A stretch of 24,000 nucleotides of DNA from Spirochaetia bacterium (GCA_963677595.1 OY782041.1:1960951-1984950), one strand, 5' to 3'; counted from the first letter of the stretch, positions 3,174 to 21,383 are shown. Notes: generated from the letters alone by a model not told the origin. Numbers and translations are program-made.

Positions 3174-3174
3174 G

Positions 3175-3516: not shown

Positions 3517-3779
3517 TCGTTCTCTATATCATATTGGGGGTGCTGATGCTCATCGCCGCAGCTGCCGCCATCCAGATGAAACATATGACCTCAGCGATCA
3601 TCGCTGCCGGGGTCGTCTCCCTGGTGGGAAGCCTGCTCTTCCTGCTCGCGGGTGCACCTGATGTCGCCATGACAGAGGCCGCAATCGGTTCCGCACTGAC
3701 GACAGTCATCTTCCTCTTCGCCTGGTCACGTATTTCCGACCATGCCAAGGGTGATGACGATGAGGAGGGTAGGTCATGA
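3513..3779 (+). CDS. DUF4040 / MrpA-C-terminal-like small membrane subunit (MbxD/MbhD-like)
   Basis: GAPDVAMTEAAIGSALTTVIFL matches the APDVALTEAAVG signature. There are three TM helices and an ATGA start/stop overlap at 3513-3516. Confidence 0.8.
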   Translation: MIVLYIILGVLMLIAAAAAIQMKHMTSAIIAAGVVSLVGSLLFLLAGAPDVAMTEAAIGSALTTVIFLFAWSRISDHAKGDDDEEGRS

Positions 3780-7800: not shown

Positions 7801-8126
7801 TCCTCATCCCGCTCGCATGGCTGCTGCTGGTACGCAGGAAGCATACCCGGCTGGTGAGCCAATTCAATATCGTGTATGCGGCAGAGCGGCCTGACAAGCC
7901 GGAGACGACCCATTTCGGGTACAACTTCTTCGCCCATTACCATGAGGCGCTCGGAAGCTTCCTCACCCCCTGGGCCACACGGTTCTGGGGCGGGGTGGAA
8001 TCGATCGTCCATGTCGCCGGTTCGGCCGTGCGGAGGATCTACTCCGGCAACGGGCAGACCTATGCCTTCTATATCCTGGCCTACTGTACAGTAGTCCTGA
8101 TCATCATTCGAGGAGGGGTACTGTAG
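4824..8126 (+). CDS. Fused double antiporter-like subunit (MrpD/NuoN-like module + linker + MrpA/NuoL-like module; MbxH-MbxH' fusion), 1100 aa
   Basis: Module 1 (aa 1-~428) has FVFLEITSISMYALI (TM5 Glu), LVELKPFPANGWAIDAYEASDPAVSA (TM7 Lys), LGYSSVGQIA and HIFSKAGLFW. A hydrophilic linker spans aa ~429-489 (nt ~6108-6290). Module 2 (aa ~490-1100) has FLSWELMTVTSFLLI, FLVKMGAAGFHIWLPSAYAEAEDETSALLSS, LAYSSMGQVGYM and HLLFKGMLFIAVAG. Confidence 0.85.
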   Translation: MVSPLYIFGLGLGIAFLLPLFEKLSKEAPKYITLLLLALFTIIPVSWIAQILPSGIMSSPVSVGTIGFAPPFAISLQIGFAEAVTLAAVNAAALLSGLYHTVRNDENWKGKHIVLFLTLIVGVNGLILTRDLFNLFVFLEITSISMYALIATNAQKHAYEAGFKYLIAGSLASASYLIGVIFLYRYTGTLYIDEIAAMDIASMAAGNPGLVIALSLLMLAMLVELKPFPANGWAIDAYEASDPAVSAMISAVGATGVLFSFHKLLELFTPQMAGVAAACGMLTFIFSQLIGLRQERVRRMLGYSSVGQIALAVTVLSIGRVHPDLAVQMQLAAALLIGTHIFSKAGLFWLADIQDRDGFTSFRKSPLFIAVIGILVSALAGLPPFPSFWAKWSLLSALTGKGYLFYMTLILLGSVCEAGYLFRWFTRGLKAAADPGDIHAEQVPEDVPVAGPQTGVISSTRARAAVGETAARNVKTAVQEAEDEKKTLHPSVLMPLVSALVVTAGGLLFGYRALEGSAEVLLLLPAAVLLVGLLLDLVRIPLKLHLLAVLAGIAYYAYQVLPQLQGLRMVFGVIFLIGSAVQMIILFNRKGVQFGLVPLMTAMVFSLGNLLLASTRLGFFLSWELMTVTSFLLILRGKLSSGAGFRYLLFSLGGAYSILAGLMLFPGFDSLLGGGGVSGAVPLAAVILLAVGFLVKMGAAGFHIWLPSAYAEAEDETSALLSSVLSKASLFMLFLTAALYLQPVSPVSSVPVSTLLGWVGTITLIAGSFFALFQEDIKYTLAYSSMGQVGYMLLGFSLMTHLGWTASLYLAVTHLLFKGMLFIAVAGVIHRTRTRMMYQMGGLIKRMPVSFLTVLIGIIALSGVPPLTGFGGKWLIYTALIEKGWYLQAAVAMFASGIAFLYLFRLIHVIFLGQLKDEHREVKEAPIWYLIPQVIGMVAIMAFSMFPNLLLQPLQAAVAPFFPASISWDGYTVISTLGYWNGNAVMYVTFGVFLIPLAWLLLVRRKHTRLVSQFNIVYAAERPDKPETTHFGYNFFAHYHEALGSFLTPWATRFWGGVESIVHVAGSAVRRIYSGNGQTYAFYILAYCTVVLIIIRGGVL

Positions 8127-9038
8127 ATGAGAGAGATAGCGATCAAGGCAGGGTATACCCTGATCTCCCTGTTCGTCATCACCAATTACGGCCTGCTCCT
8201 CATGGGGACGATGGCCAGGGTGCGCGCGAAGGTACAGGGTCGTATAGGACAGCCGGTGTGGCAGCCCTATATCGACATCATCAAGAACAATACGCGGAGG
8301 ACTGCGGTCTTCCACGGGGTCATGTTCTACCTCGGGCCGGTCTTCAGGCTGGCAGGGGGACTCGGGACCTACCTGTTCATCCCGGCAGTCTACGGCTCGC
8401 TGGTCTTCGCGAACTTCTCGTTCTCCGGGGACCTCCTGCTCGTCATGTACTTCATCTTCTTCGGGCAGCTGGGAATGGCCTTGGGTGCCGGGCAGAGCGG
8501 GCACCCCTACAGCCCGATCGGGGTAGCGAGAGGCCTGGCCCAGATGACAGCCTTCGAGGTACCGTTCGCGCTGGCGGTCATATCGATCGCGGCACAGTAC
8601 CAGACGCTCTCCATCACCGAGATCGTCGCCGTACAGCAGGGAGGCATCCTCAACTGGATAGCCTTCACCAACCCGCTGGCAATGGTGGCAGGGATGATCT
8701 CCTTCCTCGGGATGACGATGGGGAATCCGTTCAGTGTCGTCATCGCACCACAGGAGATACCGATCGGGCCGCCTACCGAGATGAACGCCGGCTTCCTCGG
8801 GATGCTTCAGACGAACCGTGCGATCTTCCAGGGCGCCAAGCTGGTGCTCTTCATGAACCTCTTCTTCGGAGGGGCGACGAACATACCGGTGATGGTCGTG
8901 AAGACCTTCCTGATCTACTTCTATACCGTGTTCGTCGGGGCTTCCTTCCCGAGGTTCAGGGTCGACCAGTCGATCAAGTTCTTCTTAGGGATACCGACAC
9001 TGATCGGTATCGCGGCAGTCGTGCTGCAGATGATCTAG
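8127..9038 (+). CDS. NuoH/ND1-like membrane subunit (MbxM/MbhM, HycD, CooK family)
   Basis: RVRAKVQGRIGQPVWQPYIDIIK matches the ER+..+Q.R.GP...QP.AD..K signature. About 8 TM helices. The ATG abuts the upstream TAG, with GGAGGGG at 8112-8118. Confidence 0.85.
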   Translation: MREIAIKAGYTLISLFVITNYGLLLMGTMARVRAKVQGRIGQPVWQPYIDIIKNNTRRTAVFHGVMFYLGPVFRLAGGLGTYLFIPAVYGSLVFANFSFSGDLLLVMYFIFFGQLGMALGAGQSGHPYSPIGVARGLAQMTAFEVPFALAVISIAAQYQTLSITEIVAVQQGGILNWIAFTNPLAMVAGMISFLGMTMGNPFSVVIAPQEIPIGPPTEMNAGFLGMLQTNRAIFQGAKLVLFMNLFFGGATNIPVMVVKTFLIYFYTVFVGASFPRFRVDQSIKFFLGIPTLIGIAAVVLQMI

Positions 9039-9052
9039 TCAGAGGGGTTAAG

Positions 9053-9709
9053 ATGAAAGATACAGATGATAAACAGGACCAGCTCGAGGAGATTGCCAAG
9101 GAGCTGAGACTGGCAAACAGCGGGCTCCCGGAGGATGAGAGAGCGTACTTCTGCGATGCGAGGCCCGAGAAGATCGATCCCTACCGGGGGATCCTCGAGA
9201 AGTTCGCCAACTGGGCGAGATCGGAATCATTGTGGATCCTCGGGTTCGGCACCGGTTGCGGGGCCATCGAGCTCAGGCCGCTGATGACCGCCCGCTATGA
9301 CATGTACCGATACGGGATCCAGCCGAGGCCGACACCGCGCCAGGCCGGGGTCTTCGTGATCGGCGGCTATGCCTCGGTGAAGACGATGAAGCGGATCGTG
9401 CGCAGCTATGAGCAGATGCAGGGACCGAAGTTCGTCCTTGGGCTCGGCAGCTGCACGATCAACGGCGGTATGTACTGGGACAGTTACAACACCGTCAACC
9501 GGCTCGACCACTATATCCCGGTGGATGTCTATATCGCCGGATGCATGCCGAGGCCTGAGGCCCTGCTCGCAGGTTTCCTCAAGCTCAAGAAGATGATCAA
9601 GTCCGGGCAGTGCGACGGCATGAACACGTATGCCGAGAATTTCGACTGGTACAAGCAGAACCAGAAACAGATCATCAAGCATTGGGAAATGCCTGATTAC
9701 AACTGGTAG
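9053..9709 (+). CDS. NuoB / hydrogenase-small-subunit-like Fe-S subunit (MbxJ-like) with only 3 of the 4 canonical cluster cysteines evident
   Basis: The real start is the ATG at 9053 (in frame with track ORF 8258..9709), preceded by GAGGGG (9042-9047). SLWILGFGTGCGAIE aligns to NuoB SLW...GLACCAIE. Also GLGSCTINGGMY (cf. GACA..GG) and VDVYIAGCMPRPEALL (cf. PGCPPRPEAL). Confidence 0.85.
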   Translation: MKDTDDKQDQLEEIAKELRLANSGLPEDERAYFCDARPEKIDPYRGILEKFANWARSESLWILGFGTGCGAIELRPLMTARYDMYRYGIQPRPTPRQAGVFVIGGYASVKTMKRIVRSYEQMQGPKFVLGLGSCTINGGMYWDSYNTVNRLDHYIPVDVYIAGCMPRPEALLAGFLKLKKMIKSGQCDGMNTYAENFDWYKQNQKQIIKHWEMPDYNW

Positions 9710-9722
9710 GAGGAGTGTGAGT

Positions 9723-10271
9723 ATGAGAGAACGATTGAGGGAAGTCTCAGGAAGATTTCCCGTGACCATACGCGAAGAACTCGCTCCTGACCGGGATGAC
9801 CTGCTCTTCGTCGAGACCGGGACCGAATATGCGGTCTCCTTCATCACCTGGCTGCAGGAACTCGAGGGGTATACCCACCTCGTCTTCTTCACGGCAGTCG
9901 ATTACATCGAGGAGGGGTACTTCCAGCTGACCTACATGCTGCAGAACTACGGGAAGAAGCATGACCTCTGCGTCCTCGTCCGCCTCGAGCGGGAGAAACC
10001 CGTCATGGAGTCGATCCACCACCTCTGGCCCCATGCTGCGACTTACCAGCAGGAGCTCTATGAGATGTACGGGATCGAGTTCCCCGGTTCACCGAGGATG
10101 TATGAGGACTTCGTCCTCGAGGGCTGGGACGACCTTCCCCCGATGCGACGGGATTTCGACACGAAAGCCTATTCAGAGGAGACCTATTTCCCGAGACCGG
10201 GAAGGAAGACACACGATACTGCTGCCTACATGAAGGAGCAGCTCTATCCCGGGGAGGCCGAGACATGGTAG
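9723..10271 (+). CDS. NuoC / 30-kDa-subunit-like protein (MbxK-like)
   Basis: The ATG at 9723 (aa 32 of track ORF 9630..10271) is preceded by GGAGGAG (9709-9715). HLVFFTAVDY...FQLTYMLQN...SIHHLWPHAATYQQELYEMYGIEFPGSP matches the NuoC pattern (.vD...f.vvY.L...S....A.W.ERE.YDM.GI.F.GHP). Confidence 0.8.
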   Translation: MRERLREVSGRFPVTIREELAPDRDDLLFVETGTEYAVSFITWLQELEGYTHLVFFTAVDYIEEGYFQLTYMLQNYGKKHDLCVLVRLEREKPVMESIHHLWPHAATYQQELYEMYGIEFPGSPRMYEDFVLEGWDDLPPMRRDFDTKAYSEETYFPRPGRKTHDTAAYMKEQLYPGEAETW

Positions 10272-11440
10272 GAGCCAAGCAGAAAGAGAGCGGGAAGTTC
10301 CCGCCTGTCGTTGACGGAAAGAGTCAGTATGACCTCTATTCAGGGAAGTACCTCAAGGTATGGCAGGGCCCGCAGCACCCCGGGATCACGGGGAACATGT
10401 CCCTCGAGCTCGTGACCTGCGGTGACCGTATCGTCGAGGCGAGGACCCATGTCGGGTACCTCCACCGGGGATTCGAGAAGCTCATGGAGCGACGGAAGTA
10501 TATCCAGTGCTTCCCCCTGGTCTGCAGGATCTGCGTGCCGGAGCCCGACTTCAACGAGTACCTCTTCGCAGAGTGTACCGAGGAGCTCGCGGGCATAGAG
10601 GTGCCCGAACGGGCGAAGTGGCTGCGTGCCATGAACCTCGAGATGGCACGGCTCACCTCGTTCCTCATGTGGCTCGGCGGACAGGCCGGGGCCTTCGGCA
10701 TGGGAACGCTCGGGCAGTGGACGGTGACGATGCGTGACTACATGCTCGACCTCTTCGAGGAGCTTACCGGTGGACGTATCTACCATATGTACATCATCCC
10801 CGGCGGGGTCCGCTCAGATGTGCCTGACGGCTATTTCGGCCGGGTCGAGGCTACCCTGCAGCAGATCGAGAAGGTCCTGAAGGACATCGAACTTGCGCTC
10901 TTCCATAACTCCGTCTTCAAGAAGCGGGCCAAAGGTCTCGGGTATATAGACCCGTCTATGGTGGAGCTCTACGGCATCACCGGCCCGAACGCCCGGGGCA
11001 GCGGTATCGCGAGGGATATCAGGAAGGATGTCGGCTACCTCGTCTATGACGAACTCGACTTCGAGCCGGTCACGGCGACTGACGGCGATGCCTATGCCAG
11101 GACCTGGGTCCGGTACCAGGAGATCCACCAGTCGATCGACCTGATCAGGCAGATGATGGCAAAGATGCCCGAAGGGCAGTTCTTCCAGAAGCTCCCCAAC
11201 GTCCTCCATTGGAAGATCCCGGCAGGCCAGACCTACCGTCGTGCGGAATGCACAAGAGGGGAGTACGGCTTCTACATGGTCTCCGACGGGTCGGAGTACC
11301 CGAGGAGGGTCGCCGTCAGGGGACCGAGCTACACCCATGCCGTCACGCTGATGGAACGGCTGGCAGTCGGGACGAACATCGCGGATACAGCAGGGTTGAT
11401 GGTATCGCTCCACACCTATCCGCCTGAGATAGAGAGGTAG
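10265..11440 (+). CDS. NuoD / group-4 hydrogenase large-subunit homologue lacking the [NiFe]-binding cysteine pairs (MbxL/Ehr-like)
   Basis: GPQHPGITGNM, GYLHRGFEKLMERRKY and IEVPERAKWLRAMNLEMARL are NuoD/large-subunit signatures. The L1 position reads VCRICVPEP (expected R.CG.C). The C-terminus reads SLHTYPPEIER (expected DPC..C..R/H). Confidence 0.85.
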   Translation: MVGAKQKESGKFPPVVDGKSQYDLYSGKYLKVWQGPQHPGITGNMSLELVTCGDRIVEARTHVGYLHRGFEKLMERRKYIQCFPLVCRICVPEPDFNEYLFAECTEELAGIEVPERAKWLRAMNLEMARLTSFLMWLGGQAGAFGMGTLGQWTVTMRDYMLDLFEELTGGRIYHMYIIPGGVRSDVPDGYFGRVEATLQQIEKVLKDIELALFHNSVFKKRAKGLGYIDPSMVELYGITGPNARGSGIARDIRKDVGYLVYDELDFEPVTATDGDAYARTWVRYQEIHQSIDLIRQMMAKMPEGQFFQKLPNVLHWKIPAGQTYRRAECTRGEYGFYMVSDGSEYPRRVAVRGPSYTHAVTLMERLAVGTNIADTAGLMVSLHTYPPEIER

Positions 11441-11443
11441 TAT

Positions 11444-13228
11444 ATGAGTCTGAAAGATATAGTTGCACCGTTCTCCGTCTGGAAGCGGGTACTGGAAAAA
11501 CCATACACAACGAAGAAGCCGATCGATGAGCGGCCGGGGGCAGCCCGGTACCGCGGGTTCCATATAAACGACGTGGACAAGTGCATCGGCTGCGGGACCT
11601 GTGAGGAGATCTGCCAGAATGCGGCGATCGACCTGGTCCCCGTATCGAAGACCAAGCACGGGGACTCCGGCCTGCGGCCGAAGATCGACTACGGCAGGTG
11701 CTGCTGGTGCGCGCTCTGCGTCGATATCTGCCCCACGGGATCGCTCGGGATGAGCAATGAGTACATCTGGGTCGAGAACGACCCGGAGGCCTACCGGTTC
11801 ATCCCCGGGCACGACGAGAAGAGCTGGAACGGCAGCGAACTCGGTTACCGCCGCGCTGAAGGCTATGACCTGCTCGAGGGCGAGCGGGTCGCCATGCCGA
11901 TGCTCCCCTTCGAGGAGAGCCAGAAGAGCTTCATCGAGATGGTCCTCGGATACTCGAAGGAACAGGCTCAGCGTGAGGCTGACCGGTGTATCGCCTGCGG
12001 CATCTGCGTCGCCACCTGCCCGGCTCACATGAACGTGCCTGACTACATCAAGGCCATACGTGACGATGACATGGAAGAGGGACTGCGGATCGTTTACCAG
12101 GCGAACCCGCTGCCTGCCTCCTGCGGGCGTGTCTGCTCCCATGCATGTGAGTATGTCTGTGCCGTGAAGCATAAGGGTGAGGCGCTCTCCATCCGCTGGC
12201 TCAAGCGGTACATCATCGACCAGATCTACAAGGACGACTATACGAAGATCCTTGACGAGATGCCGGAGGAGAACGGCAGGAAGGTCGCGATCATCGGATC
12301 GGGACCGGGGGGCTTGAGTGCCGCCTACTACCTGAGGCTCCTCGGGTACAGTGTGACGGTCTACGACGCGAACGAGAAAGCCGGTGGTATGCTTCGCTAC
12401 GGAATACCCGAGTACCGGCTTCCCTACGACCAGGTCGACAAGGATATCGTGTATCTCACGACGCTGGGCGTGAAGATCGAGCAGAATGTACGTATCGGGG
12501 TGGACAAACCCATGAAGGAGATCTATGAGCAGAACGACGCGGTCTTCTTCTCCACAGGATTGACTGACCCCTACGGTCTCGGTATTGCCGGTGAGGACCT
12601 CAAGGGTGTCCTCTCCGGTCTGGGCATGCTCGATGACGTGACGAACGGCAAGACCCCGGACATCGGGGGATCGGTGGTGGTCATCGGCGGTGGTAACGTC
12701 GCCATGGATGCTGCCAGGACGAGCCGGCGGTACAAGGCTGACGTGACCATCCTCTACCGGAGGCGCGAGGTCGATATGCCGGCCGATGTCGAGGAGATCG
12801 AGGAGTCCCAGGGAGAGGGCTGTACCCTGATCACCCAGGCGATCCCGCTGAGGATCGAGAAGGGGGACAAGACGAGGTTGAAGCTCTATTGGGGCAAGGC
12901 AGAGATGGTAGCCGACAGCAAGGGTGGCAGGCCGAGGCCGGTGCTCATCGAGGGTTCGGAAGAGCTCATCGAATGTGACACCATCATACCCGCGATCGGG
13001 CAGGCGGCAGACTACTCGTTCCTCCCTGATGATATTGCCAAGTCGGTCACCTTCACCCGGGGCTATGTCGATGTCAACGAGTTCTACCAGACGGGTGACA
13101 AGAAGATATTCGCCGGAGGTGATATCGCAAACCCGAAGCGGGATGCCATCAGCGCCATCGCCAACGGCCACTCCGCAGCGAAGGGGATCGATATCTACCT
13201 GAACGATTTCGCTGAAGGGGAAGAATAG
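11444..13228 (+). CDS. Fusion protein: NuoI/MbxN-like 2x[4Fe-4S] ferredoxin domain + GltD/NfnB/SudA-like Fe-S, FAD, NAD(P)H oxidoreductase domain (594 aa)
   Basis: The N-terminus has KPYTTKKP...RYRGFH, C47-x2-C-x2-C-x3-C57 and C86-x2-C-x2-C-x3-C96-P. The C-terminal module has C182-x2-C-x2-C-x3-C192-P, C227-x3-C231-x3-C235-x3-C239 within NPLPASCGRVCSHACEYVC, VAIIGSGPGGLSAAYYL, GGMLRYGIPEYRLP, VVVIGGGNVAMDAARTSRR, ILYRRR and IFAGGD. Confidence 0.85.
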   Translation: MSLKDIVAPFSVWKRVLEKPYTTKKPIDERPGAARYRGFHINDVDKCIGCGTCEEICQNAAIDLVPVSKTKHGDSGLRPKIDYGRCCWCALCVDICPTGSLGMSNEYIWVENDPEAYRFIPGHDEKSWNGSELGYRRAEGYDLLEGERVAMPMLPFEESQKSFIEMVLGYSKEQAQREADRCIACGICVATCPAHMNVPDYIKAIRDDDMEEGLRIVYQANPLPASCGRVCSHACEYVCAVKHKGEALSIRWLKRYIIDQIYKDDYTKILDEMPEENGRKVAIIGSGPGGLSAAYYLRLLGYSVTVYDANEKAGGMLRYGIPEYRLPYDQVDKDIVYLTTLGVKIEQNVRIGVDKPMKEIYEQNDAVFFSTGLTDPYGLGIAGEDLKGVLSGLGMLDDVTNGKTPDIGGSVVVIGGGNVAMDAARTSRRYKADVTILYRRREVDMPADVEEIEESQGEGCTLITQAIPLRIEKGDKTRLKLYWGKAEMVADSKGGRPRPVLIEGSEELIECDTIIPAIGQAADYSFLPDDIAKSVTFTRGYVDVNEFYQTGDKKIFAGGDIANPKRDAISAIANGHSAAKGIDIYLNDFAEGEE

Positions 13229-13232
13229 TACC

Positions 13233-13249
13233 AGAACCGGTTCTATAAT
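13233..13249. promoter_or_regulatory. Perfect 12-bp palindrome AGAACCGGTTCT abutting a TATAAT/TATA-like element upstream of the ArsR-family gene (candidate operator + promoter)
   Basis: AGAACC|GGTTCT spans 13233-13244 and TATAAT spans 13244-13249. This lies 50 nt upstream of the ATG at 13299, with GGTGGTGA (13283-13290) as RBS. Confidence 0.4.
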
Positions 13250-13298
13250 GCGGCATATGCTGATATACTTCCCCGGAACAAGGTGGTGAGAGAAGAAG

Positions 13299-13646
13299 AT
13301 GGATTTGTTTGAGATGCACTGTGAGGAGACTATACTGGAGTTGCGGGAACGGTTCTCAAGTTCCCGGTGTGAGCTGGTGGAGCGCATGATGTCGATCATG
13401 TCCAACCCCATCCGGTTTCACATCCTCTGTGCGCTCAACCATGAACCGTTCACCGTTTCCGAGCTGGTGGACCTCACCGACTCGCAGCCTTCGAACGTAT
13501 CACAGCAGCTGAAGATGATGACCCTCGCCGGGTACCTGGACAAGGAACGGCGGGGGAAACAGATCTACTACCGGCTCATCGAGGATAAGGTGTCACGCAT
13601 CATCAGCCTGCTCGAGGAGCTCTTCCCCTTTGACCAGCCAGAATAG
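13299..13646 (+). CDS. ArsR/SmtB-family winged-HTH transcriptional regulator
   Basis: PIRFHILCALNHEPFTVSELVDLTDSQPSNVSQQLKMMTLAGYLDKERRGKQIYYRL is the canonical ArsR HTH-wing core. There is a ~35-aa N-terminal extension. Cysteines are at aa 8, 24 and 44, with no CxxC or CVC metal motif. Confidence 0.85.
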   Translation: MDLFEMHCEETILELRERFSSSRCELVERMMSIMSNPIRFHILCALNHEPFTVSELVDLTDSQPSNVSQQLKMMTLAGYLDKERRGKQIYYRLIEDKVSRIISLLEELFPFDQPE

Positions 13647-13747
13647 CGGCTTCGCTTACCTGAAACCTCACGAACAGACGCCTCACAAAAACAGCATACG
13701 ACAGGAATACCATTGCGGAGTGGGGATTCCTGGGGTATAGTAGTAGT

Positions 13748-13766
13748 ATGATGTTACATCATGTAA
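13748..13766. promoter_or_regulatory. Two overlapping perfect palindromes in the AT-rich leader of the stressosome-type operon
   Basis: ATGATGT-T-ACATCAT spans 13748-13762 and TTACAT-C-ATGTAA spans 13754-13766, followed by a repeated TGTAA. They lie about 100 nt upstream of the ATG at 13864. Confidence 0.3.
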
Positions 13767-13863
13767 TGTAAGGTTTTCAGGCTATACACTACAGTTCTGT
13801 TCTGATCCGACTCTGCCTGATGATCTTTTCTGAGGGAATGTTCTGAAACCAGGGGGAGGAATC

Positions 13864-14673
13864 ATGGCAAAGACCTATCATGAGAAAGAGATCGATGAGA
13901 GATTGAAACTGCAGGTGCTCGATCAGATACCTACGCCTGTCATCGCGATCAATATGGAGTATGAGCTCATCTATGTGAATGATGCCGCCACGAAGCTGCG
14001 CGGCAGATCCAAGGAGAACCTCCTGGGGTATCACTGCTATGAGATGTTCGGGACACCTCACTGTAATACCCCGAGCTGCTGCATGCGCAAAGCCATGGAG
14101 ACCGGGGAGATGTTCTCCGCACGGAACGAGATCCCCCTTGATGAGGGTGGATCCATCCCCATCATGTATTATACCGTACCTCTCAAGGATGATGATGGGA
14201 ATGTCATCGGCGGGCTAGAGTATATCGTCGATATCACGGACCAGGTCTCGTATGAGGCACGCATCAAGGAACAGAGCAAACAGATGTCCAAGATGTCGAC
14301 TCCGACGATCAAGCTGTGGGAAGGGGTGCTGGTGCTGCCCGTGATCGGGGTGGTCGACTCTCTCAGAGCTCAGCTCATGATGGAGAGCATGCTCGACAAG
14401 ATCGTTGAGACTTCGGCAAAAGTCATCCTCCTCGACATCCAGGGGGTGGCTGCCGTTGATACTGCCATCGCGAACCACCTGATCAAGATCACGAAAGCCA
14501 CGAAGCTGATGGGCTGTGAATGCATCCTGTCCGGCATTTCTCCGGCGGTGGCCCAGACGATCATCCAGCTCGGTATCGACATGATAGACTCTATCAAGAC
14601 CATGTCCACGCTGAGCGATGGACTGGCCGAAGCCTTCAAGATCCTGAACATGCGGGTCGAGAAGATAGACTGA
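13864..14673 (+). CDS. RsbR-like stressosome scaffold/sensor: N-terminal Cys-rich PAS domain + C-terminal STAS domain
   Basis: The STAS core STPTIKLWEGVLVLPVIGVVDS...VILLDIQGVAAVDTAIANHLIK...LSGISPAVAQTIIQLGID aligns with B. subtilis RsbRA (..DITGVPVVDT.., ..IRPEIAQTIV..), including both phospho-Thr positions (T200, T232). The N-terminus is PAS-like (IPTPVIAINMEYELIYVNDAA...LLG). RBS GGGGGAGG lies before the ATG. Confidence 0.8.
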   Translation: MAKTYHEKEIDERLKLQVLDQIPTPVIAINMEYELIYVNDAATKLRGRSKENLLGYHCYEMFGTPHCNTPSCCMRKAMETGEMFSARNEIPLDEGGSIPIMYYTVPLKDDDGNVIGGLEYIVDITDQVSYEARIKEQSKQMSKMSTPTIKLWEGVLVLPVIGVVDSLRAQLMMESMLDKIVETSAKVILLDIQGVAAVDTAIANHLIKITKATKLMGCECILSGISPAVAQTIIQLGIDMIDSIKTMSTLSDGLAEAFKILNMRVEKID

Positions 14674-14683
14674 GCAGTTGTCT

Positions 14684-15067
14684 ATGGGGATGGTGGGAGG
14701 TTCGCTCAGGTCATCGATCACAGAGATCAATAATAATCTGATCATCACTCTTGCCGCTGAGATGGATGATGAGGATCTTGCGTCCTTCAGCGAATCGGTG
14801 ACGTTATTCAGCCATGGTCGTAAGCTCAATGGGGCTGTCATAGATTTCTCTATGGTGCAGGTACTGGACAGCTATACGCTGGAGGTCCTGCTGTCGTTGT
14901 CGAAGCATATCACGCTGCTCGGAGCAGAGGTCGTCTGGGTCGGGTTGAAGCCAGGAGTGGTCATCGGGCTGATAGACCTGAACATCGATCTTGACCAACT
15001 CAAGTTCAGGACTGCACTGAACCTTGACAGGGGGCTGGTGCTGCTTCAAAAGGGGCAGAATTCTTGA
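14684..15067 (+). CDS. RsbS-like single-domain STAS protein (stressosome antagonist)
   Basis: A small STAS protein: NLIITLAAEMDDEDL...GAVIDFSMVQVLDSYTLEVLL, with the conserved phosphorylatable Ser in the LDS context (S63, nt 14870-14872). The track ORF starts at TTG 14678; ATG codons lie at 14684 and 14690. Confidence 0.75.
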   Translation: MGMVGGSLRSSITEINNNLIITLAAEMDDEDLASFSESVTLFSHGRKLNGAVIDFSMVQVLDSYTLEVLLSLSKHITLLGAEVVWVGLKPGVVIGLIDLNIDLDQLKFRTALNLDRGLVLLQKGQNS

Positions 15068-15069
15068 CT

Positions 15070-15549
15070 ATGGCTGTGATGCAGGGAGCCCGTATGAGAG
15101 TGGAACAGGATCGGGCAGGTTTGATAGTACTCGAGACCTGCAGGGTGGATATAACGCATCCCTCCGACACGGGGCACGTGATCCCCCTCTGCAGGCTGAT
15201 GGCCAGGAAGGCGGGCTTTTCTGAGCGAGATGAGTTCCTCCTTGCCACGGTCGCATCAGAGCTGACGACGAACATCGTCAGGTATGCCGGCAAAGGGGAA
15301 CTGAACATCAGGATCCTCAGGAATCCCGCCACACGCCTGATAGGGCTCGAACTCTATGCAGAGGATCATGGTCCGGGCATCGAGAATGTGGAACTTGCCA
15401 TGACGGATAACTACTCGACAACGAGGAACAGCATCGGCTCAGGGCTGCCGGGGGTGAAGCGGATCATGGATGAGTTCTCGCTTGAGACAGCTGTCGGGGA
15501 GGGTGTCAGGATCAGGGCGGTGAAGTGGGGCAGACATGCAGAGGGTTGA
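15070..15549 (+). CDS. RsbT-like serine protein kinase (GHKL/HATPase_c, anti-sigma-factor-kinase type)
   Basis: N-box ELTTNIVRYAGKG, G1 EDHGPGI and G2 GSGLPGVKR, at ~160 aa as for RsbT/SpoIIAB-type kinases. The start is ambiguous: TTG at 15064 overlaps the RsbS stop, or ATG at 15070. Confidence 0.8.
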   Translation: MAVMQGARMRVEQDRAGLIVLETCRVDITHPSDTGHVIPLCRLMARKAGFSERDEFLLATVASELTTNIVRYAGKGELNIRILRNPATRLIGLELYAEDHGPGIENVELAMTDNYSTTRNSIGSGLPGVKRIMDEFSLETAVGEGVRIRAVKWGRHAEG

Positions 15550-16189
15550 GTACGGTACCGCAGTCCAGCCGTTGATCGGGGGGATCGAAGACAGCGGAGA
15601 CATCGCTGTGGTCAGGGAGGATACGGGCTCTCTCTATTTTGCCCTGGTTGATGTGCTCGGCCATGGGAGTGAGGCAGGGGAGGTCGCTGCGCAAGCCAGC
15701 CAGTTCCTGGGGTGTCACTGCGACGAGAGTCTGGTTGACCAGCTGAACGGGCTGCATGAGCACCTGAACGGGACAAGGGGTGCTGTTGCTGCGCTGTGCA
15801 GGTTGAATGTCGAAGACGGGACGCTGCAGCTGGCGGGTATAGGGAATATTGCCGTGCGGGTCATCGGTAGAGATTCATTTCAATTCGTACTTCGAGACGG
15901 GATCATCGGATACGGCCGGATCAAAGCCCTGCTCCAGGAGCGAACGATCTCACCGGGAGAATATATCGTCCTCCATTCAGACGGGATACGTTCCTTCCTC
16001 CGGGCAGAGAACTGTTTCGCTGCGATCAGGGGAAGTGCACATACCGTTGCTGACAATATCCTCAAGGAGTGTGCCTCTGGTGATGATGATGCTTCCTGTA
16101 TTGTAGTGAGATATACGGGAGCAGATCCTATGGCCTCTTCATCCTATGTGCCGTTTACCGGCAGATTGTCCGGGAGGTCAGGTTCATGA
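15536..16189 (+). CDS. RsbX-like PP2C/SpoIIE-family phosphatase
   Basis: SGDIAVV...ALVDVLGHGSEAG, TRGAVAA, GIGNIA, VLHSDGI and DDASCIVV parallel RsbX (GD..., DGLGSGS.A, RGATA, GN, HTDG, DD). It overlaps the RsbT-like 3' end by 14 nt. Confidence 0.8.
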   Translation: MQRVEYGTAVQPLIGGIEDSGDIAVVREDTGSLYFALVDVLGHGSEAGEVAAQASQFLGCHCDESLVDQLNGLHEHLNGTRGAVAALCRLNVEDGTLQLAGIGNIAVRVIGRDSFQFVLRDGIIGYGRIKALLQERTISPGEYIVLHSDGIRSFLRAENCFAAIRGSAHTVADNILKECASGDDDASCIVVRYTGADPMASSSYVPFTGRLSGRSGS

Positions 16190-18936
16190 ATCTGGGTAGA
16201 TTGCAGCTCTTTGATTCACAGTCACTGATCACTGCCCGCAGCCGGATCCATTCAGCGGCAAAGAGACTGGGCTGTCGGGAGATCTTCTGTATCAGGCTGG
16301 AGACCCTCTATTCTGAACTGTTCAGGAAGTGCCTCCTGTTTGGAGATGATCTGGAACTCAACTTCTCCCTGGCTGTATGCCAGGGTAGGCAGGTCGCGGA
16401 GATCGTGATCACCGGGTTCAGCGCCCCGCCTGATCTCGCATCCCTGCCAAAGCACCGTCTGGCACACGTAACTGCAGAGACGCTGGCTGAAGGTAGTGCC
16501 ATTCGATGCTCGACACCCCTTGATGAGGAGGTCAGCGGATGGGACGGCAACTCTTCCGATGAGAGACTGCAGGCTGTTCGCGACATCCTTGCGGAGAAGA
16601 GCAGGAACGAACTGCTGAAGGATATACTCCATAAGAACGAGGAACTCGAGCACAGCAGGACGCTGATCCATTCCGTCCTGGAGAATATCGACTCCATCGT
16701 CTATGCCAAGGACCTGGAAGGCCGGTATACCCTGGTGAACCATGACTGGGAAGCTGCCAGGGGCTTCTCGCAGGCCCAGGTGATCGGACGTCGCGATATC
16801 GACATCTTCAGGGATGGGGAGAGTGAGTCGAGCAAGAGGCTGCGAAATGACAACCATACCCAGGATCTGCAGGTCATGGTTGATGCTGTGATGTTCAAGG
16901 CTGAAGAGGTGATCGTGACACCGGAAGGTGCTGCCAAGCAGCTGCTTACTGTCAAGATCCCGCTTATCCGGCAGGATGAGGTCTACGGGATCAGCAGCAT
17001 ATCGATCGATATAACCGAACAGAAGGAGCTCTATGCCGAGTTAGAGGAGGCCCGGAAGATCGCCGAGGATGCTGCTGAGACGAAGTCAGCCTTCCTGGCT
17101 AACATGAGCCATGAGATCCGAACCCCGATGAACGCCATTATCGGTATGGCCCACCTGGTAGGGGAGACAGAGCTGAATGATAGGCAGCAGGGGTATGTGG
17201 AGAATATCCAGAAGTCGGGGGAACTGCTCCTTGGGATCATCAACGACATCCTCGACTACTCCAAGATCGAGGCTGGTAAGCTCGATATCGAAGAGACGGT
17301 GTTCAGCCTGTCTGAGGTCCTTCGCACCCTCAGGACCATCATAGACCTGAAATGCGAGACGAAGGGCTTAAGGCTCGCCTTCGAGATCGGGAAGCAGATA
17401 CCGGTCTATCTCATCGGGGACCCGCTGCGTATCGGGCAGATCCTGATCAACTACGCGAACAATGCGGTGAAGTTCACGCAAGAGGGTGGGGTGACCGTGC
17501 GGATATCCCTTGTGGGGAGACAGGATACCATCTATACGCTGCGTTTCGAGGTAGTCGACACCGGTATCGGTCTCACGGAGGAGCAGATGGGGAAACTCTT
17601 CTCCTCCTTCTCCCAGGCCGATGTCTCCATCACCCGACAGTACGGCGGTTCCGGACTCGGGCTCTCCATCTCGAAGAATCTCGCGCAGATGATGCACGGG
17701 ACCGTTGGAGTCTCTTCCGTCTATGGGGAAGGCAGTACGTTCTGGTTCACGGTTCCGCTGCATATCGATGAGGGGCACTATGGGGAAGGAGAGCAGCCTG
17801 AAGACCTTGATGAGACGTTCCAGAGGGAACTCGACCATCCTACCATAGGCAGGGGCAATCAGGAGAACGGTCCTGTTCCCGTGTTCAGGGAAGCCTCCGT
17901 CCTGCTCGTTGAGGATAACGAACTGAACATCCAGGTGGCAGAGGGGATGCTGGAGAAGTGGGGCATCAAGCCTGCTGTCGCGAGGAATGGCGAGATAGCC
18001 CTCAGCAAGGTGAAAGATACTCGCTATGACCTTATCTTCATGGATATGCAGATGCCGGTGATGGACGGGATCACGGCCAGTCACGAGATCCGGAAGGTCT
18101 TCACGATCGATGAACTCCCTATCATCGCCATGACAGCGAATGCCATGGCCGAGGACATCGAGAAGTGTGCACAAGCCGGGATGAACGGCCATATCGCGAA
18201 ACCGATCGAGCCGGACAAGCTCCTTGGTACCCTGCAGCAATACCTGAAATCGTACGAGACCGTAGAAGAACGTCCTGACGATATAGCAGGACAGAAGGAC
18301 ATGGAGAAACTCTTCATACCCGGCCTGAGGGCCGAAGCCGCTGTGGATCGGCTCGGTGGGAGTTGGGCTACCTATCGGGACCTGCTCGAGCTCTTCCTCT
18401 CTGAGAATAAGGATACAGAAGCGCAGCTCACCGGATTGCTTGAGTCCGGGCAGTTCCAGGAGGCCCAGCTGCTTGCCCATACCGTCAAGGGGACTGCCGG
18501 GGCGATCGGTGCAGTCCAGACTGCGGATCGTGCCAAAGATGTAGAGACTGCCCTGAAGAACCAGGAAGATCCTGGTCGCATTGCAGATCTTGTCTCAGCC
18601 CTGGCAGGGGAGCTGAACCCGCTGCTTGGACTGCTTCGATCCGAGTTCGCTGCGGGGGTTGACGTCACTGGTCAGTCAACATCTGGAGTAGGGGCTGTGC
18701 TGACACAAGAGAGCCTGGGCCTGCTTTATGACCTTGGTGATGTACTGAAGAAGCACAACCCGAAACGGTCGAAAGAGGCAGTGAACCGCTGTCTGGAACA
18801 AGCCTGGCCTAATGAGATCGCAGAAGGACTGTCGGAACTGGAGAAGATGGTAAAGGGCTTTCGCTACAAGGATGCCATAGTATTGATAGAGAGACTGATC
18901 AGCTCTGCTGAAGAGAACCGAAGGAGTGATACATGA
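16186..18936 (+). CDS. Soluble hybrid histidine kinase: unassigned N-terminal domain - PAS - HisKA - HATPase_c - REC - HPt
   Basis: H-box FLANMSHEIRTPMNAIIG (H309, nt 17110-17112); N/G boxes INYANNAVKF, VVDTGIGL, GGSGLGLSIS; REC VLLVEDNELN...DLIFMDMQMPVMDG...AKP (D620); HPt AHTVKGTAGAIGA (H765). No TM helices are evident. ATGA overlap with the RsbX-like stop. Confidence 0.9.
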   Translation: MNLGRLQLFDSQSLITARSRIHSAAKRLGCREIFCIRLETLYSELFRKCLLFGDDLELNFSLAVCQGRQVAEIVITGFSAPPDLASLPKHRLAHVTAETLAEGSAIRCSTPLDEEVSGWDGNSSDERLQAVRDILAEKSRNELLKDILHKNEELEHSRTLIHSVLENIDSIVYAKDLEGRYTLVNHDWEAARGFSQAQVIGRRDIDIFRDGESESSKRLRNDNHTQDLQVMVDAVMFKAEEVIVTPEGAAKQLLTVKIPLIRQDEVYGISSISIDITEQKELYAELEEARKIAEDAAETKSAFLANMSHEIRTPMNAIIGMAHLVGETELNDRQQGYVENIQKSGELLLGIINDILDYSKIEAGKLDIEETVFSLSEVLRTLRTIIDLKCETKGLRLAFEIGKQIPVYLIGDPLRIGQILINYANNAVKFTQEGGVTVRISLVGRQDTIYTLRFEVVDTGIGLTEEQMGKLFSSFSQADVSITRQYGGSGLGLSISKNLAQMMHGTVGVSSVYGEGSTFWFTVPLHIDEGHYGEGEQPEDLDETFQRELDHPTIGRGNQENGPVPVFREASVLLVEDNELNIQVAEGMLEKWGIKPAVARNGEIALSKVKDTRYDLIFMDMQMPVMDGITASHEIRKVFTIDELPIIAMTANAMAEDIEKCAQAGMNGHIAKPIEPDKLLGTLQQYLKSYETVEERPDDIAGQKDMEKLFIPGLRAEAAVDRLGGSWATYRDLLELFLSENKDTEAQLTGLLESGQFQEAQLLAHTVKGTAGAIGAVQTADRAKDVETALKNQEDPGRIADLVSALAGELNPLLGLLRSEFAAGVDVTGQSTSGVGAVLTQESLGLLYDLGDVLKKHNPKRSKEAVNRCLEQAWPNEIAEGLSELEKMVKGFRYKDAIVLIERLISSAEENRRSDT

Positions 18937-20045
18937 AGAAGATTTCAGACTGCCTGGTATTGATCGTGGATGACACGGAACTGAATGTGAGGATCCTGGT
19001 AGAGGCCCTCGGTGATGATTATGAGCTCGCAGTCGCCATGGACGGGGACATGGCCCTGGAGTTGCTGGAGGAGACGATCCCCGATATCGTCCTGCTCGAT
19101 ATCATGATGCCGAACATCAGCGGCCTCGAGGTCTGCGAGAAGATGAAGCAGAACCCTGCCACACAGGATATTCCTGTCATCTTCCTCTCGGCCATGACCG
19201 ATATCGACAGCAAGTCGAAGGGGTTCGAGCTTGGCGCGGTCGATTTCGTCGAGAAGCCGTTCGACATCAGGGAGGTCAAGGTAAGGGTGAAGACCCATCT
19301 CTCACTTGCGATCGCGAAGGCAGAACTTGCCCAGCAGAACGAGATCCTCAACCAGAAGGTGGCCGAACGGACAAAGGAGATCAAGCTCATCCAGGATGTG
19401 ACGCTTGAGACCCTTGCCGGTCTCGCGGAGTCCAGGGATCCCGATACCGGGCGGCACATCGCCCGTACCAGTACCTACGTGAAGATGCTGGCTGAAAAGC
19501 TGATGGACCACCCGATGTATGAAGGTGTCCTCACCCCTGAGAAGGTGTACAGTTTTTATGAGTCTGCACCCCTCCACGATATCGGGAAGGTGGGGATCCC
19601 GGATGCGATCCTACTCAAGCCCGGCAGGCTCACGGATGAGGAACGGGAGGAGATGAAGAACCATACCTACATCGGCTACAAGACCCTCAAGAGGCATATC
19701 AACAAACTCGGTGCCTACTCGTTCTTCACGAATGCGATGGATTTTGCCCTCTACCACCATGAGAAATGGGACGGCAGCGGGTATCCCCAGGGACTGAAAG
19801 GGGAGGATATTCCACTGGCCGGCAGACTCATGGCCTTGGCTGATGTCTATGATGCCCTGGTGAGCAAGCGGGTCTACAAGCCGTCGTTCCCCCACTCGAA
19901 GGCGGTACGGATCATCGAGGAGGATAGCGGTACACACTTCGATCCTGAACTGGTCGAGGTCTTCAAGTCGATCCACGAGGAGATCCGTGCTTTCGCGATC
20001 GAGAATGCAGATTTCGATGAGGAGCGGGAGTCCCTTCGATTGTAA
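18933..20045 (+). CDS. Response regulator with REC + HD-GYP domain (RpfG-type phosphohydrolase)
   Basis: REC LVLIVDDTELN...DIVLLDIMMPNISG...EKP (D56). The HD-GYP domain has RHIARTS, PLHDIGKVGIPDAILLKPGRLT, EMKNHTYIGY, HHEKWDGSGYPQGL (GYP at nt 19779-19787) and LADVYDAL. ATGA overlap with the kinase stop. Confidence 0.9.
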   Translation: MKKISDCLVLIVDDTELNVRILVEALGDDYELAVAMDGDMALELLEETIPDIVLLDIMMPNISGLEVCEKMKQNPATQDIPVIFLSAMTDIDSKSKGFELGAVDFVEKPFDIREVKVRVKTHLSLAIAKAELAQQNEILNQKVAERTKEIKLIQDVTLETLAGLAESRDPDTGRHIARTSTYVKMLAEKLMDHPMYEGVLTPEKVYSFYESAPLHDIGKVGIPDAILLKPGRLTDEEREEMKNHTYIGYKTLKRHINKLGAYSFFTNAMDFALYHHEKWDGSGYPQGLKGEDIPLAGRLMALADVYDALVSKRVYKPSFPHSKAVRIIEEDSGTHFDPELVEVFKSIHEEIRAFAIENADFDEERESLRL

Positions 20046-20121
20046 GACTTGGAAGAGATCCTGGTAACCCGGAAAGTACCCTGATCCCAGCGCAGGATGA
20101 TCAGCATAGATGAATTGCTAC

Positions 20122-20490
20122 CTACGGGACCTGCTTCATATCCTGAAGGAGGACTTCCGCAGGTATATGAAGCTCCACATGCAGATTCCTCATCATTGAA
20201 AGACTGAGAGGCTGCTTCCTTTTCAGCACTTCAGAGACTTTGCTCTGGCTGCCTATGATAGGGATGAGGTCTCTCCTTGTCATCCCGCGCTGGTCCATAG
20301 CGAACAGGATCGCATCTATGGGATCGGGGAGAGCAATCGGATACTGCATATCCTCATAGGTTGTGACCAGTGAGGTGAATGATTCGATCTCGTCATTGAT
20401 CTCATCTGTTTCAGGTAGTTCCATGAGGGATTCAATGTATTCGAGTGCTGCCTCATAGTCCTGAGCAGTCTTGAGTAGTTTTGGTTTCAT
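20122..20490 (-). CDS. HigA-like / XRE-type HTH antitoxin-family protein (no partner toxin gene evident)
   Basis: The architecture is typical of COG5499-type antitoxins: an N-terminal helical region (AQDYEAALEYIESLM...) and a C-terminal HTH (GMTRRDLIPIIGSQSKVSEVLKRKQPLSLSMMRNLH). The track start at 20493 is a GTG. The ATG at 20490 is preceded on the minus strand by AGGGGG. Confidence 0.7.
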   Translation of the reverse strand: MKPKLLKTAQDYEAALEYIESLMELPETDEINDEIESFTSLVTTYEDMQYPIALPDPIDAILFAMDQRGMTRRDLIPIIGSQSKVSEVLKRKQPLSLSMMRNLHVELHIPAEVLLQDMKQVP

Positions 20491-20590
20491 CACATCCGCA
20501 ACCCCCTTCCCGTATCATACCATACGAGGAAGCCACAAGCAAATCGAAGCCTGTGTGCGTCTTATGGATATGCGGGTTTATTTGTTCTAG

Positions 20591-20621
20591 TATGACCAAA
20601 AGTAGTAATTAAGTCATAGCA
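20591..20621. repeat. Palindromic repeat copy A: TATGAC-N16-GTCATAGCA
   Basis: TATGAC at 20591-20596 and GTCATA at 20613-20618 are exact inverted repeats with a 16-nt AT-rich spacer. 25 of 31 positions are identical to copy B. Confidence 0.6.
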
Positions 20622-20730
20622 AGCATATCTTGATTTTTTACCCATACTATACGGAGAGAAACTGCTGTACGCTGTTATTCCAGAACCAGAGCTTGCCATT
20701 GGGGTATGGGTATAGTCATCACTGCAGTAT

Positions 20731-20761
20731 TATGACTAAAAGTTATAAGATAGTCATAGCA
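20731..20761. repeat. Palindromic repeat copy B: TATGAC-N16-GTCATAGCA
   Basis: TATGAC at 20731-20736 and GTCATA at 20753-20758, 140 nt from copy A. An extra half-site TAGTCAT lies at 20713-20719. Confidence 0.6.
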
Positions 20762-20816
20762 GTTGATTCGGTAGGAACCGGTGTGGAAGCCTGTTGCATC
20801 AGGTGTCTGATGAGGG

Positions 20817-21383
20817 TTAGGGTCTTGAGAAGAGATTCTGGATCAGTGCAGCAGGGATGAGGAAGATGATGCCCAGCGACTGGATGAGGTCGCTGCCGAT
20901 CCTCCTGCCTGCAGCCCCCTTCCCCTTGAGGCGGTTCATCAGTGCGATGAAGGCGATCCCGTTGATGTTCCCGAACATGATGACCCGGATCGCGGCAAGG
21001 ATCGCGGCGGCTGTCCCTTCCCCATAGCGGGAGAGGACTCGATCCCATACCTCGGCCTCATAGTTCCCGAAGGTGTCAGCATAGTGCTGGGCGAAGAGGA
21101 GGGCGACTGCTTCCTCTTCTGCTGCAGCTCCTTCCTCGAGGTTCACCATGGAGGTGATCTCCTCTTCTGACATGCCGCTCTCAAGGGCATGTTTGGCATG
21201 ATAGTAGTTGCAGACGGCACAACCGTTGACCTCAGTGACCACCAGCATGATACGGGTGATGAACTCCTTGGAGATCAGTCCCGACTTCTCTGCCTTCCTC
21301 ATGACCGGCATGCTCCTCATGGCCAGACGGATGACATGGTAGAACTGCGGTACGGTGAATATCCTGGCTTTCATCTGTCTCAT
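20817..21383 (-). CDS. Carboxymuconolactone decarboxylase (AhpD-like) family protein with hydrophobic C-terminal segments
   Basis: The CMD/AhpD CxxC motif VNGCAVCNYYHAKHAL. The C-terminus has hydrophobic stretches AAAILAAIRVIMFGNINGIAFIAL and LIQSLGIIFLIPAALIQNLF. A strong RBS AAGGAGG lies 8 nt upstream of the ATG at 21383. Confidence 0.75.
   Translation of the reverse strand: MRQMKARIFTVPQFYHVIRLAMRSMPVMRKAEKSGLISKEFITRIMLVVTEVNGCAVCNYYHAKHALESGMSEEEITSMVNLEEGAAAEEEAVALLFAQHYADTFGNYEAEVWDRVLSRYGEGTAAAILAAIRVIMFGNINGIAFIALMNRLKGKGAAGRRIGSDLIQSLGIIFLIPAALIQNLFSRP

Follow-up and report, generated by a model that had tools for sequence, protein, structure and literature searches.

The stressosome of Bacillus subtilis and Listeria is built on a STAS-domain core of RsbR and RsbS, is served by RsbT as its switch kinase and by RsbX as its phosphatase, carries threonine, threonine, and serine phosphoacceptors, and has transcription as its output, with RsbU, RsbV, RsbW, and sigma-B. 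A different output is documented for Vibrio vulnificus, where the locus VvRsbR-RsbS-RsbT-RsbX-D1-D2 (VV2_0073 to VV2_0078) adds a PAS-containing sensor kinase, D1, and a protein predicted to degrade cyclic di-GMP (c-di-GMP), D2; the RsbR-RsbS-RsbT-RsbX (RSTX) and D1-D2 genes have common transcription kinetics, and deletion of D1 lowers motility (PMC9237108, PMC10014275). Here, we analyze a locus of this kind at positions 13864-20045, plus strand, of a 24,000-nucleotide (nt) stretch of DNA from a Spirochaetia bacterium (GCA_963677595.1 OY782041.1:1960951-1984950), referred to below as the window. It encodes an RSTX module, a hybrid histidine kinase, and a response regulator (RR) with REC and HD-GYP domains, and we put at roughly 75% the probability that it is a Vibrio-type stressosome locus, in which an RSTX module is joined to a two-component output of the D1/D2 type, and that its host is a Desulfovibrionales-like bacterium.

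Heinz et al. found Vibrio D1 to be without an RsbU_N domain, did not detect an interaction between VvRsbT and VvD1, and left open where the signal exits the stressosome (PMC9237108). The question in the Vibrio literature is therefore how a stressosome with neither RsbU nor an RsbU_N-bearing target is linked to its output. In the Moorella thermoacetica stressosome, MtR-MtS-MtT-MtX-MtG, RSTX likewise acts on an enzyme of c-di-GMP metabolism and not on a sigma factor, the output there being an RsbU_N-GAF-GGDEF diguanylate cyclase that RsbT contacts through RsbU_N (Quin et al. 2012, cited in PMC12143880). In contrast, the output predicted for the window passes through a phosphorelay of four steps that leads to a phosphodiesterase, and RsbU_N is absent. 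A dead RsbT/RsbW-like domain that heads the outputs of such loci, described below, is a specific, testable candidate for the link between stressosome and output.

Gene content of the locus and its relation to the Vibrio system

The six open reading frames (ORFs) run in the same direction and are tightly packed, with the coordinates that an earlier note, made from the sequence of this DNA alone, had assigned to them, and every one of their Pfam domains scores above the gathering score. That note had proposed profile searches for STAS, HATPase_c, SpoIIE, HisKA, Response_reg, Hpt, and HD-GYP, all of which were found, and its central claim, namely an RSTX module without RsbU, RsbV, RsbW, or sigma-B that is joined to a relay of the His-Asp-His-Asp type with a REC-HD-GYP protein as its last member, passed each of the profile tests. 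The first gene (13864-14673) encodes an RsbR-like co-antagonist and sensor of 269 amino acids (aa) with a PAS domain (aa 19-128, nt 13918-14247; PAS_4, E-value 3.5e-16) and a STAS domain (aa 152-250, nt 14317-14613; Pfam STAS, 2.9e-15). Its best match in the PDB is the RsbR of the V. vulnificus stressosome (7o0i_B, 5e-44), to which the STAS domain is 52% identical. Listeria RsbR (7b0u) matches at 6e-28 with both threonines inside the alignment, and the two residues already proposed as phosphosites, T200 (nt 14461-14463) and T232 (nt 14557-14559), align in HMMER with the phosphothreonines of the Listeria VDT and AQT motifs.

The second gene (14684-15067, alternative start TTG 14678) encodes an RsbS-like single-STAS scaffold and antagonist of 127 aa (Pfam STAS, 3.7e-9), which matches the solved structures of an RsbS (6jhk, 1.4e-14), Moorella MtS (2vy9, 1.3e-12), and the Listeria (6qcm) and V. 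vulnificus (7o0i_a) proteins. A serine is encoded at 14870-14872, as previously claimed, and aligns in HMMER with the phosphoserine of the 'DS' motif in solved RsbS; the number 63 given to it is correct only from ATG 14684, the start called at the equivalent position in a near-identical genome (L001), and becomes 65 from TTG 14678. The third product, an RsbT-like GHKL Ser/Thr switch kinase of 151 aa (15094-15549; HATPase_c and HATPase_c_2), has 65 homologues in the database, many of them labeled RsbT by their sources. It contains the anticipated N, G1, and G2 boxes (in a 161-aa numbering, N-box E66..N70, G1 D101xGxG, and G2 G125xGxxG), and across an alignment of 41 sequences, E64, N68, D99-G-P-G-I, and G123xG do not vary. 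Among its candidate starts (TTG 15064, ATG 15070, and ATG 15094), the last is the more probable, judging from an AGGGAG Shine-Dalgarno sequence at 15083-15088 and from the product of L001, which is called at 151 aa. The RsbS/RsbT junction would accordingly be a 26-nt gap, rather than the overlap or near-abutment first described. The fourth gene (15536-16189) encodes an RsbX-like single-domain PP2C feedback phosphatase of 217 aa (Pfam SpoIIE, 4.8e-10) that retains the aspartate motifs expected of it (Asp39, Asp149, and Asp183-185) and aligns along its entire length with MtX, the stressosome phosphatase of Moorella (3zt9, 1e-19); B. subtilis RsbX (3w40) matches at 2e-6. With catalytic and acceptor residues intact, these four genes constitute a complete stressosome-type set.

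The PAS domain of RsbR carries the motif Cys58-x8-(His66)Cys67-x4-Cys72 (nt 14035-14079, plus strand). Of 16 PAS-type RsbR proteins, which come from several phyla, all keep each of the three cysteines and 14 keep H66. The motif suggests a candidate metal, Fe-S, or redox-sensing site in the place of the Vibrio heme, and this domain may respond to a redox or metal signal. A Cys-rich PAS domain that replaces a heme globin would widen the range of signals that stressosomes may sense.

The output is encoded by the last two genes. The fifth (16186-18936) specifies a cytoplasmic hybrid histidine kinase of the D1 type (916 aa) with PAS (aa 165-280; PAS_4), HisKA (300-364), HATPase_c (411-526), REC (572-682; Response_reg), and Hpt (732-800) domains, and the phosphorelay residues previously picked out, H309 (nt 17110-17112), D620 (nt 18043-18045), and H765 (nt 18478-18480), are all present within this one chain. 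Its matches to BarA/TorS/ArcB-like families of NCBIfam fall below the equivalog cut-offs, and it is therefore not an orthologue of these proteins. The sixth gene (18933-20045) specifies a D2-type RR of 370 aa, a predicted c-di-GMP phosphodiesterase, in which a REC domain (aa 9-119; Response_reg, 1.3e-26) with D56 (nt 19098-19100) and K108 precedes an HD-GYP domain (aa 161-340; HD_5, 6.9e-32, and HD) with HD215-216 and HHEKWDGSGYP 275-285 intact. Kinase and RR together form a complete His-Asp-His-Asp relay with intact HD-GYP motifs. In the PDB, the RR matches the c-di-GMP phosphodiesterases PA4781 of Pseudomonas aeruginosa (4r8z, 3.6e-50) and PmGH (4mcw, 6.5e-44), and it shares the REC and HD-GYP architecture and the catalytic motifs with both PA4781 and RpfG of Xanthomonas. 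RpfC-RpfG senses diffusible signal factor, whereas the cognate kinase in the window is of the hybrid type, has an Hpt domain, and is linked to a stressosome. Compared with the D2 proteins that occupy its position in five related loci (L006, L010, L017, L019, and L027), the RR shows 49-62% identity, with 49% for D2 of Vibrio mimicus; the kinase and V. mimicus D1 share 43% identity over 415 aa. By these sequence comparisons, the two proteins are orthologues of the D1/D2 output module of Vibrio. The kinase also has a C-terminal tail of ~106 aa after the Hpt domain (aa 811-916, nt 18616-18936) with no Pfam match and with weak phmmer matches to the same tail in the kinases of L012, L018, and L024.

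The remaining junctions are tight: a gap of 4-10 nt separates rsbR and rsbS, and, as had been reported, the rsbT and rsbX ORFs overlap by 14 nt (15536-15549) and ATGA overlaps join rsbX to the kinase gene (16186-16189) and the kinase gene to that of the RR (18933-18936). The locus thus has the same six-gene order as in Vibrio, with RsbX directly after RsbT, no RsbU, RsbV, RsbW, or sigma-B, a cytoplasmic PAS-HisKA-HATPase-REC-Hpt hybrid kinase as D1, and REC plus a predicted HD-type c-di-GMP phosphodiesterase as D2. It differs from the Vibrio system in its RsbR, where PAS_4/PAS_9 with the Cys3-His motif stands in place of the Protoglobin (heme) domain of the Vibrio, Neisseriaceae, and SAR86 proteins, in its single kinase REC domain as opposed to the two of Vibrio D1, and in its host, a Desulfovibrionales-like bacterium of an anaerobe type judging from the nearest named relatives of RsbT. 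From B. subtilis and Listeria it is set apart by the absence of RsbU, RsbV, RsbW, and sigma-B, by the position of RsbX directly after RsbT, by its sole RsbR, whose N-domain is a PAS in place of a non-heme globin, and by a predicted output of c-di-GMP turnover, not transcription. The architecture is a modest variation on the documented Vibrio design, in a bacterium, and the novelty that the earlier note attached to the layout was overstated, since it had already been described for V. vulnificus (PMC9237108, PMC10014275).

To place the locus among its relatives, species-representative genomes were scanned with an RsbR-STAS alignment and the downstream genes were classified, giving 82 non-redundant loci. 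A hybrid kinase followed by a REC-HD-GYP gene, in the same order as here, was found in 6/82 (L006, L007, L010, L017, L019, and L027); four are of the PAS type (an Acetobacterium metagenome-assembled genome [MAG], an uncultured bacterium, a Desulfobacteraceae, and a Desulfobacter) and two of the globin type (a Neisseriaceae and V. mimicus). Three further loci have the hybrid kinase with the REC-HD-GYP gene elsewhere in the locus, and ten have it directly after RsbX with no HD-GYP seen. The most frequent arrangement (39 loci) is a Bacteroidota type in which a fusion of RsbT-like and PP2C domains precedes a simple kinase, while 17 loci have another output or are truncated, and in seven no RsbT was found or the contig ends. 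The sharing of this gene order across unrelated phyla is more than chance, and the predicted Vibrio-type stressosome-to-c-di-GMP pathway is present also in anaerobes that resemble sulfate reducers and in several further phyla. An output gene comes directly after RsbX in almost all of the surveyed loci. L001 has the same genes in the same order at 98-100% identity, and the closest named relatives of RsbT are from Desulfobaculum xiamenense (58%) and a Pseudodesulfovibrio MAG. The best 80 related loci all have bacterial record titles, contrary to the suggestion that the host might be an archaeon with a rarely noted configuration.

Several details of the related loci were recorded in passing. In the 39 loci of the Bacteroidota type (within L040-L085), most of which have Bacteroidota titles, an RsbT-like HATPase_c_2 and PP2C fusion of ~337 aa replaces RsbX (e.g., L045, 11228-13881); it is followed by a simple PAS-HisKA-HATPase kinase that begins with the RsbT-like N-module described below for the window kinase and often by a stand-alone REC protein, and the RsbR of these loci has an RsbRD_N domain. 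Outputs of the cAMP/cGMP type are wired to the same N-module or to the stressosome in three loci: L003 of D. xiamenense (10999-13479) encodes the N-module with three PAS domains and a class III cyclase, L086 (2555-4689) the N-module with PAS and a cyclase followed by a hemerythrin gene, and L014 (14799-15803) a hybrid kinase and, after it, a regulator of the REC-cyclase type. In L027 (V. mimicus CAIM 602, 14944-16200), D2 is split into ORFs of 291 aa, with HD_5 truncated, and 99 aa, reflecting either a frameshift/pseudogene or a sequencing error.

The amino-terminal domain of the hybrid kinase

Residues 1-169 of the kinase match no Pfam family, RsbU_N included, even at E≤10, and a coupling domain of the RsbU_N type was rejected on this basis. 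However, an iterative profile seeded with the first ~130 residues recovered RsbT proteins together with the N-termini of nearly all outputs. Whether drift of the profile caused this convergence on RsbT was checked five ways: with kinases chosen by position, with a second RsbT set, with other output types, by structure, and by specificity. The N-termini of 20 hybrid kinases, picked by position alone (directly after RsbX or RsbT), were compared by hhalign with an alignment of 68 RsbT sequences, yielding a probability of 97.7% (E=1.5e-12, 95 columns), as opposed to 0.1-0.3% for an RsbS profile, a reversed query, and a reversed template; with the window kinase and its two closest relatives only, the match stayed at 94.7%. 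A separate RsbT set drawn from a global database gave 97.3% (E=2.4e-11). Seven outputs of other kinds, comprising a class III cyclase, PP2C phosphatases (some with an RsbW-like domain), and a simple kinase, have N-termini that matched those of the hybrid kinases at 99.4% (E=7e-22) and RsbT at 94.7%. In addition, leave-one-out profiles built without RsbT recovered the window kinase at E=7e-12.

The alignments to RsbT also indicate what this domain has lost. The Asn of the N-box is gone ('SELFRK' where RsbT has 'SELTTN'), and the segment comprising G1, the ATP lid, and G2 is deleted, and the domain therefore cannot be a kinase; it is a pseudokinase that is related to the RsbT/RsbW/SpoIIAB kinases by fold and is no functional member of them. 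A model of residues 1-170 made with AlphaFold2 from a three-sequence, RsbT-free alignment (predicted local confidence [pLDDT] 80) has a b-a-a-b-b-b-b topology followed by a long helix, which is an alpha/beta GHKL-like fold and no helical bundle. When this model of the N-domain was searched against the PDB with Foldseek, the top 11 matches were all RsbW/SpoIIAB/UsfX proteins at a probability of 1.00, with target template-modeling scores of up to 0.75 and a sharp drop in scores from rank 12 on. Single-sequence AlphaFold was unusable for residues 1-123 (pLDDT 45), and the linker helices 121-135 and 140-169 were confident in both models. As judged from the profile comparisons and the predicted structure, kinase residues 1-111 (nt 16186-16518) are a degenerate RsbT/RsbW-type GHKL domain without ATP-binding loops, which is joined to the PAS domain by a helical linker (aa 121-169, nt 16546-16692) carrying 'AEKSRNELLKDILHKNEELE', a motif that certain other RSTX outputs have as well. 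A linker motif, 'EKSRxEL..KNxEL', was considered as a universal mark of these outputs and rejected, as a strict regular expression found it in only 8/68 outputs (2/661 background ORFs).

An exhaustive HMMER scan of kinase residues 1-135 against 1.84 billion representatives returned four hits, of which one was the query and one (P0067) looked spurious; the two real distant matches both lie directly after RSTX modules. One of them (P0068) is the kinase of L004, and the other (P0069), which follows a PAS-RsbR-S-T-X module, has the N-domain, linker, and PAS of the window kinase with a cyclase end. Word-indexed homologue searches with kinase residues 1-169 and with a 17-sequence alignment of the N-domain found nothing at database-wide significance, and a profile of the N-domain found nothing significant among PDB sequences. 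No description of the domain was found in the accessible literature, which did not cover the Pane-Farre et al. reviews of 2005 and 2017. The same N-module heads varied outputs after RSTX, including cyclases, PP2C phosphatases, and simple kinases, consistent with an adaptor that can move between proteins and that has become fused, in the course of evolution, to catalytic outputs of at least four kinds.

Proposed coupling of the stressosome to its output

The course of events set out here, from the assembly of the complex and its signal through the coupling step to the direction of regulation and the nucleotide that serves as substrate, is inferred. RsbR and RsbS would join by way of their STAS domains in a complex resembling a stressosome, with RsbT held in it, and a signal at the PAS domain would lead RsbT to phosphorylate RsbS at its DS-motif serine and RsbR at T200 and T232, with RsbX stripping these phosphates to reset the system. 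The hybrid kinase would read the phosphorylation state through its dead RsbT/RsbW-like domain and the helical linker, where a shift in linker and dimer geometry would alter autophosphorylation at H309. The phosphoryl group would then pass from H309 to D620, H765, and D56 of the RR, switching the HD-GYP domain and altering c-di-GMP hydrolysis. We infer that the N-domain of the kinase is likely the element that couples the stressosome to this output.

For the contact itself, our tentative proposal, to which we give a little less than even odds, is that the pseudokinase domain docks on unphosphorylated RsbS or RsbR, as RsbW does on RsbV, and that phosphorylation by RsbT releases or engages it. 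RsbW, SpoIIAB, and UsfX (6m36, 1tid, and 8ih8) have the same small GHKL fold as kinase residues 1-111, and direct docking on a STAS protein is favored because the known partners of this fold are STAS proteins; unlike them, the kinase N-domain has no ATP-binding elements, is fused to a histidine kinase, and has no sigma factor nearby. A more speculative generalization is that RSTX outputs as a class (hybrid and simple kinases, class III cyclases, and PP2C phosphatases) share the dead RsbT/RsbW-like domain as a partner-switching client of STAS proteins, so that RsbT would signal by phosphorylating RsbS or RsbR and not by binding the output. If true, this would explain both the absence of RsbU_N and the absence of a detectable RsbT-D1 interaction in Vibrio.

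Several points weigh against this account. The ATP lid contributes to STAS docking in SpoIIAB-type complexes, and the kinase N-domain has no lid, so direct STAS binding is not assured. Additionally, the kinase has a PAS domain of its own that could receive an independent signal, and HD-GYP enzymes can favor other nucleotides, the RR matching a 3'3'-cyclic GMP-AMP (3'3'-cGAMP) phosphodiesterase of Vibrio cholerae at 1.3e-33 (5z7c). With regard to Vibrio itself, the leave-one-out profiles built without RsbT did not recover the D1 proteins of Vibrio, Neisseriaceae, and Variovorax, whose N-termini as a group match the N-domain family in register at 86-88% (E~3e-6) and show no match to RsbT directly (4%). 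Given the failed leave-one-out test and the group comparison, Vibrio D1 was downgraded as a carrier of the domain: the kinase N-terminus in the window is clearly RsbT-like (97%), while Vibrio D1 is a probable but not secure, more diverged member. By profile, the argument from the N-domain is thus secure for the window and the other non-Vibrio loci, but not for the Vibrio system that has been studied experimentally.

A possible though doubtful alternative to STAS docking, along the classical Bacillus route, is that released RsbT pairs with the pseudo-RsbT domain and linker of the kinase as a GHKL heterodimer, stiffening the coiled coil and activating the kinase while the STAS proteins remain untouched. 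RsbT is known to bind the N-domain and linker of RsbU and to order its coiled-coil linker, and kinases and cyclases have been suggested to work in a like manner (PMC12143880); the confident long helix directly after the kinase N-domain would suit such a mechanism, as would the dimeric state of SpoIIAB/RsbW-type GHKL proteins, which makes an RsbT/pseudo-RsbT pair structurally plausible. Set against this, RsbU_N is absent, the VvRsbT-VvD1 interaction went undetected by Heinz et al. (PMC9237108), and proteins of this fold are known to partner with STAS proteins and sigma factors. The negative result in Vibrio could also be taken to mean that the kinase and REC-HD-GYP protein are an independent two-component system beside RSTX, with the kinase PAS domain as its input, and several relatives do have the hybrid kinase with no adjacent HD-GYP regulator. 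We regard this as highly improbable, given the ATGA overlaps at the RsbX/kinase and kinase/RR junctions, the output gene directly after RsbX in nearly every surveyed locus, the presence of the N-module on proteins with differing catalytic outputs that all directly follow RSTX, and the co-regulation of Vibrio D1/D2 with RSTX (PMC9237108).

Two further alternatives concern the ends of the pathway rather than the coupling step. R-S-T-X might be a small soluble partner-switching module that forms no megadalton stressosome, the name reflecting homology only; sets of STAS, GHKL, and PP2C proteins that act by partner switching are very common, sequence cannot tell the size of a complex, and only one RsbR paralogue is present at the locus. 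This seems unlikely, as the V. vulnificus RsbR to which the STAS domain is 52% identical is also the only one at its locus and nevertheless forms a stressosome resolved by cryo-electron microscopy (PMC9237108; 7o0i), and RsbS matches four structurally characterized stressosome RsbS proteins. Similarly improbable is that the RR hydrolyzes another cyclic dinucleotide (e.g., 3'3'-cGAMP) in place of c-di-GMP, or serves mainly as a binding protein. Along with the match to the V. cholerae enzyme, this option draws on the top NCBIfam match of the RR, a NosR-family c-di-GMP phosphodiesterase, which reaches only 151 bits against a 400-bit cut-off. However, the structures that match the RR best belong to c-di-GMP phosphodiesterases, namely PA4781 (a REC-HD-GYP protein as well) and PmGH, the HD and HHExxDGxGYP motifs are intact, and the phenotypes of Vibrio deletions fit control of motility by c-di-GMP (PMC10014275). 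We therefore retain, as the preferred reading, a Vibrio-type stressosome whose output is c-di-GMP turnover.

Flanking sequences and upstream genes

The 217-nt intergenic region upstream of rsbR (13647-13863, plus strand) is the presumed promoter region, and a Shine-Dalgarno sequence, GGGGGAGG, lies just 5' of ATG 13864. A sigma-70 consensus scan of this region found no convincing site, promoter and terminator consensus scans gave background levels only, and Rfam returned no match. The overlapping junctions, together with the absence of plus-strand promoter-like sites within the six-gene cluster in the consensus scan, are consistent with a single transcript across the cluster.

Upstream, at 2396-13228, the window encodes an Mrp/Mbx-like membrane complex (MnhE, MnhB/MbhE, an 1100-aa Proton_antipo_M fusion, and NuoH-, NuoB-, NuoC-, and NuoD-like subunits) that is followed by a GltD-like Fer4/FAD/NAD(P)H protein of 594 aa. 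The [NiFe] CxxC motifs are absent from the NuoD-like subunit (10265-11440), which is therefore not a hydrogenase, and the complex may be an NAD(P)H-linked ion-pumping complex. The earlier note was correct that the stressosome locus sits next to an energy-converting complex, but the related loci L003 and L004 lack this Mrp/Nuo-type neighborhood. A functional link between the two was rejected for this lack of synteny, and the adjacency is probably incidental because it is not conserved in these relatives. Between the complex and rsbR lies a gene for a 115-aa regulator of the ArsR/HTH_5 family (13299-13646), which is kept in L001 and absent from L003 and L004. Directly 3' of the operon, a convergent ORF of 123 aa on the minus strand (20122-20493) has no Pfam match, and the GC content of 20001-21000 is 0.49, compared to 0.55-0.60 elsewhere.

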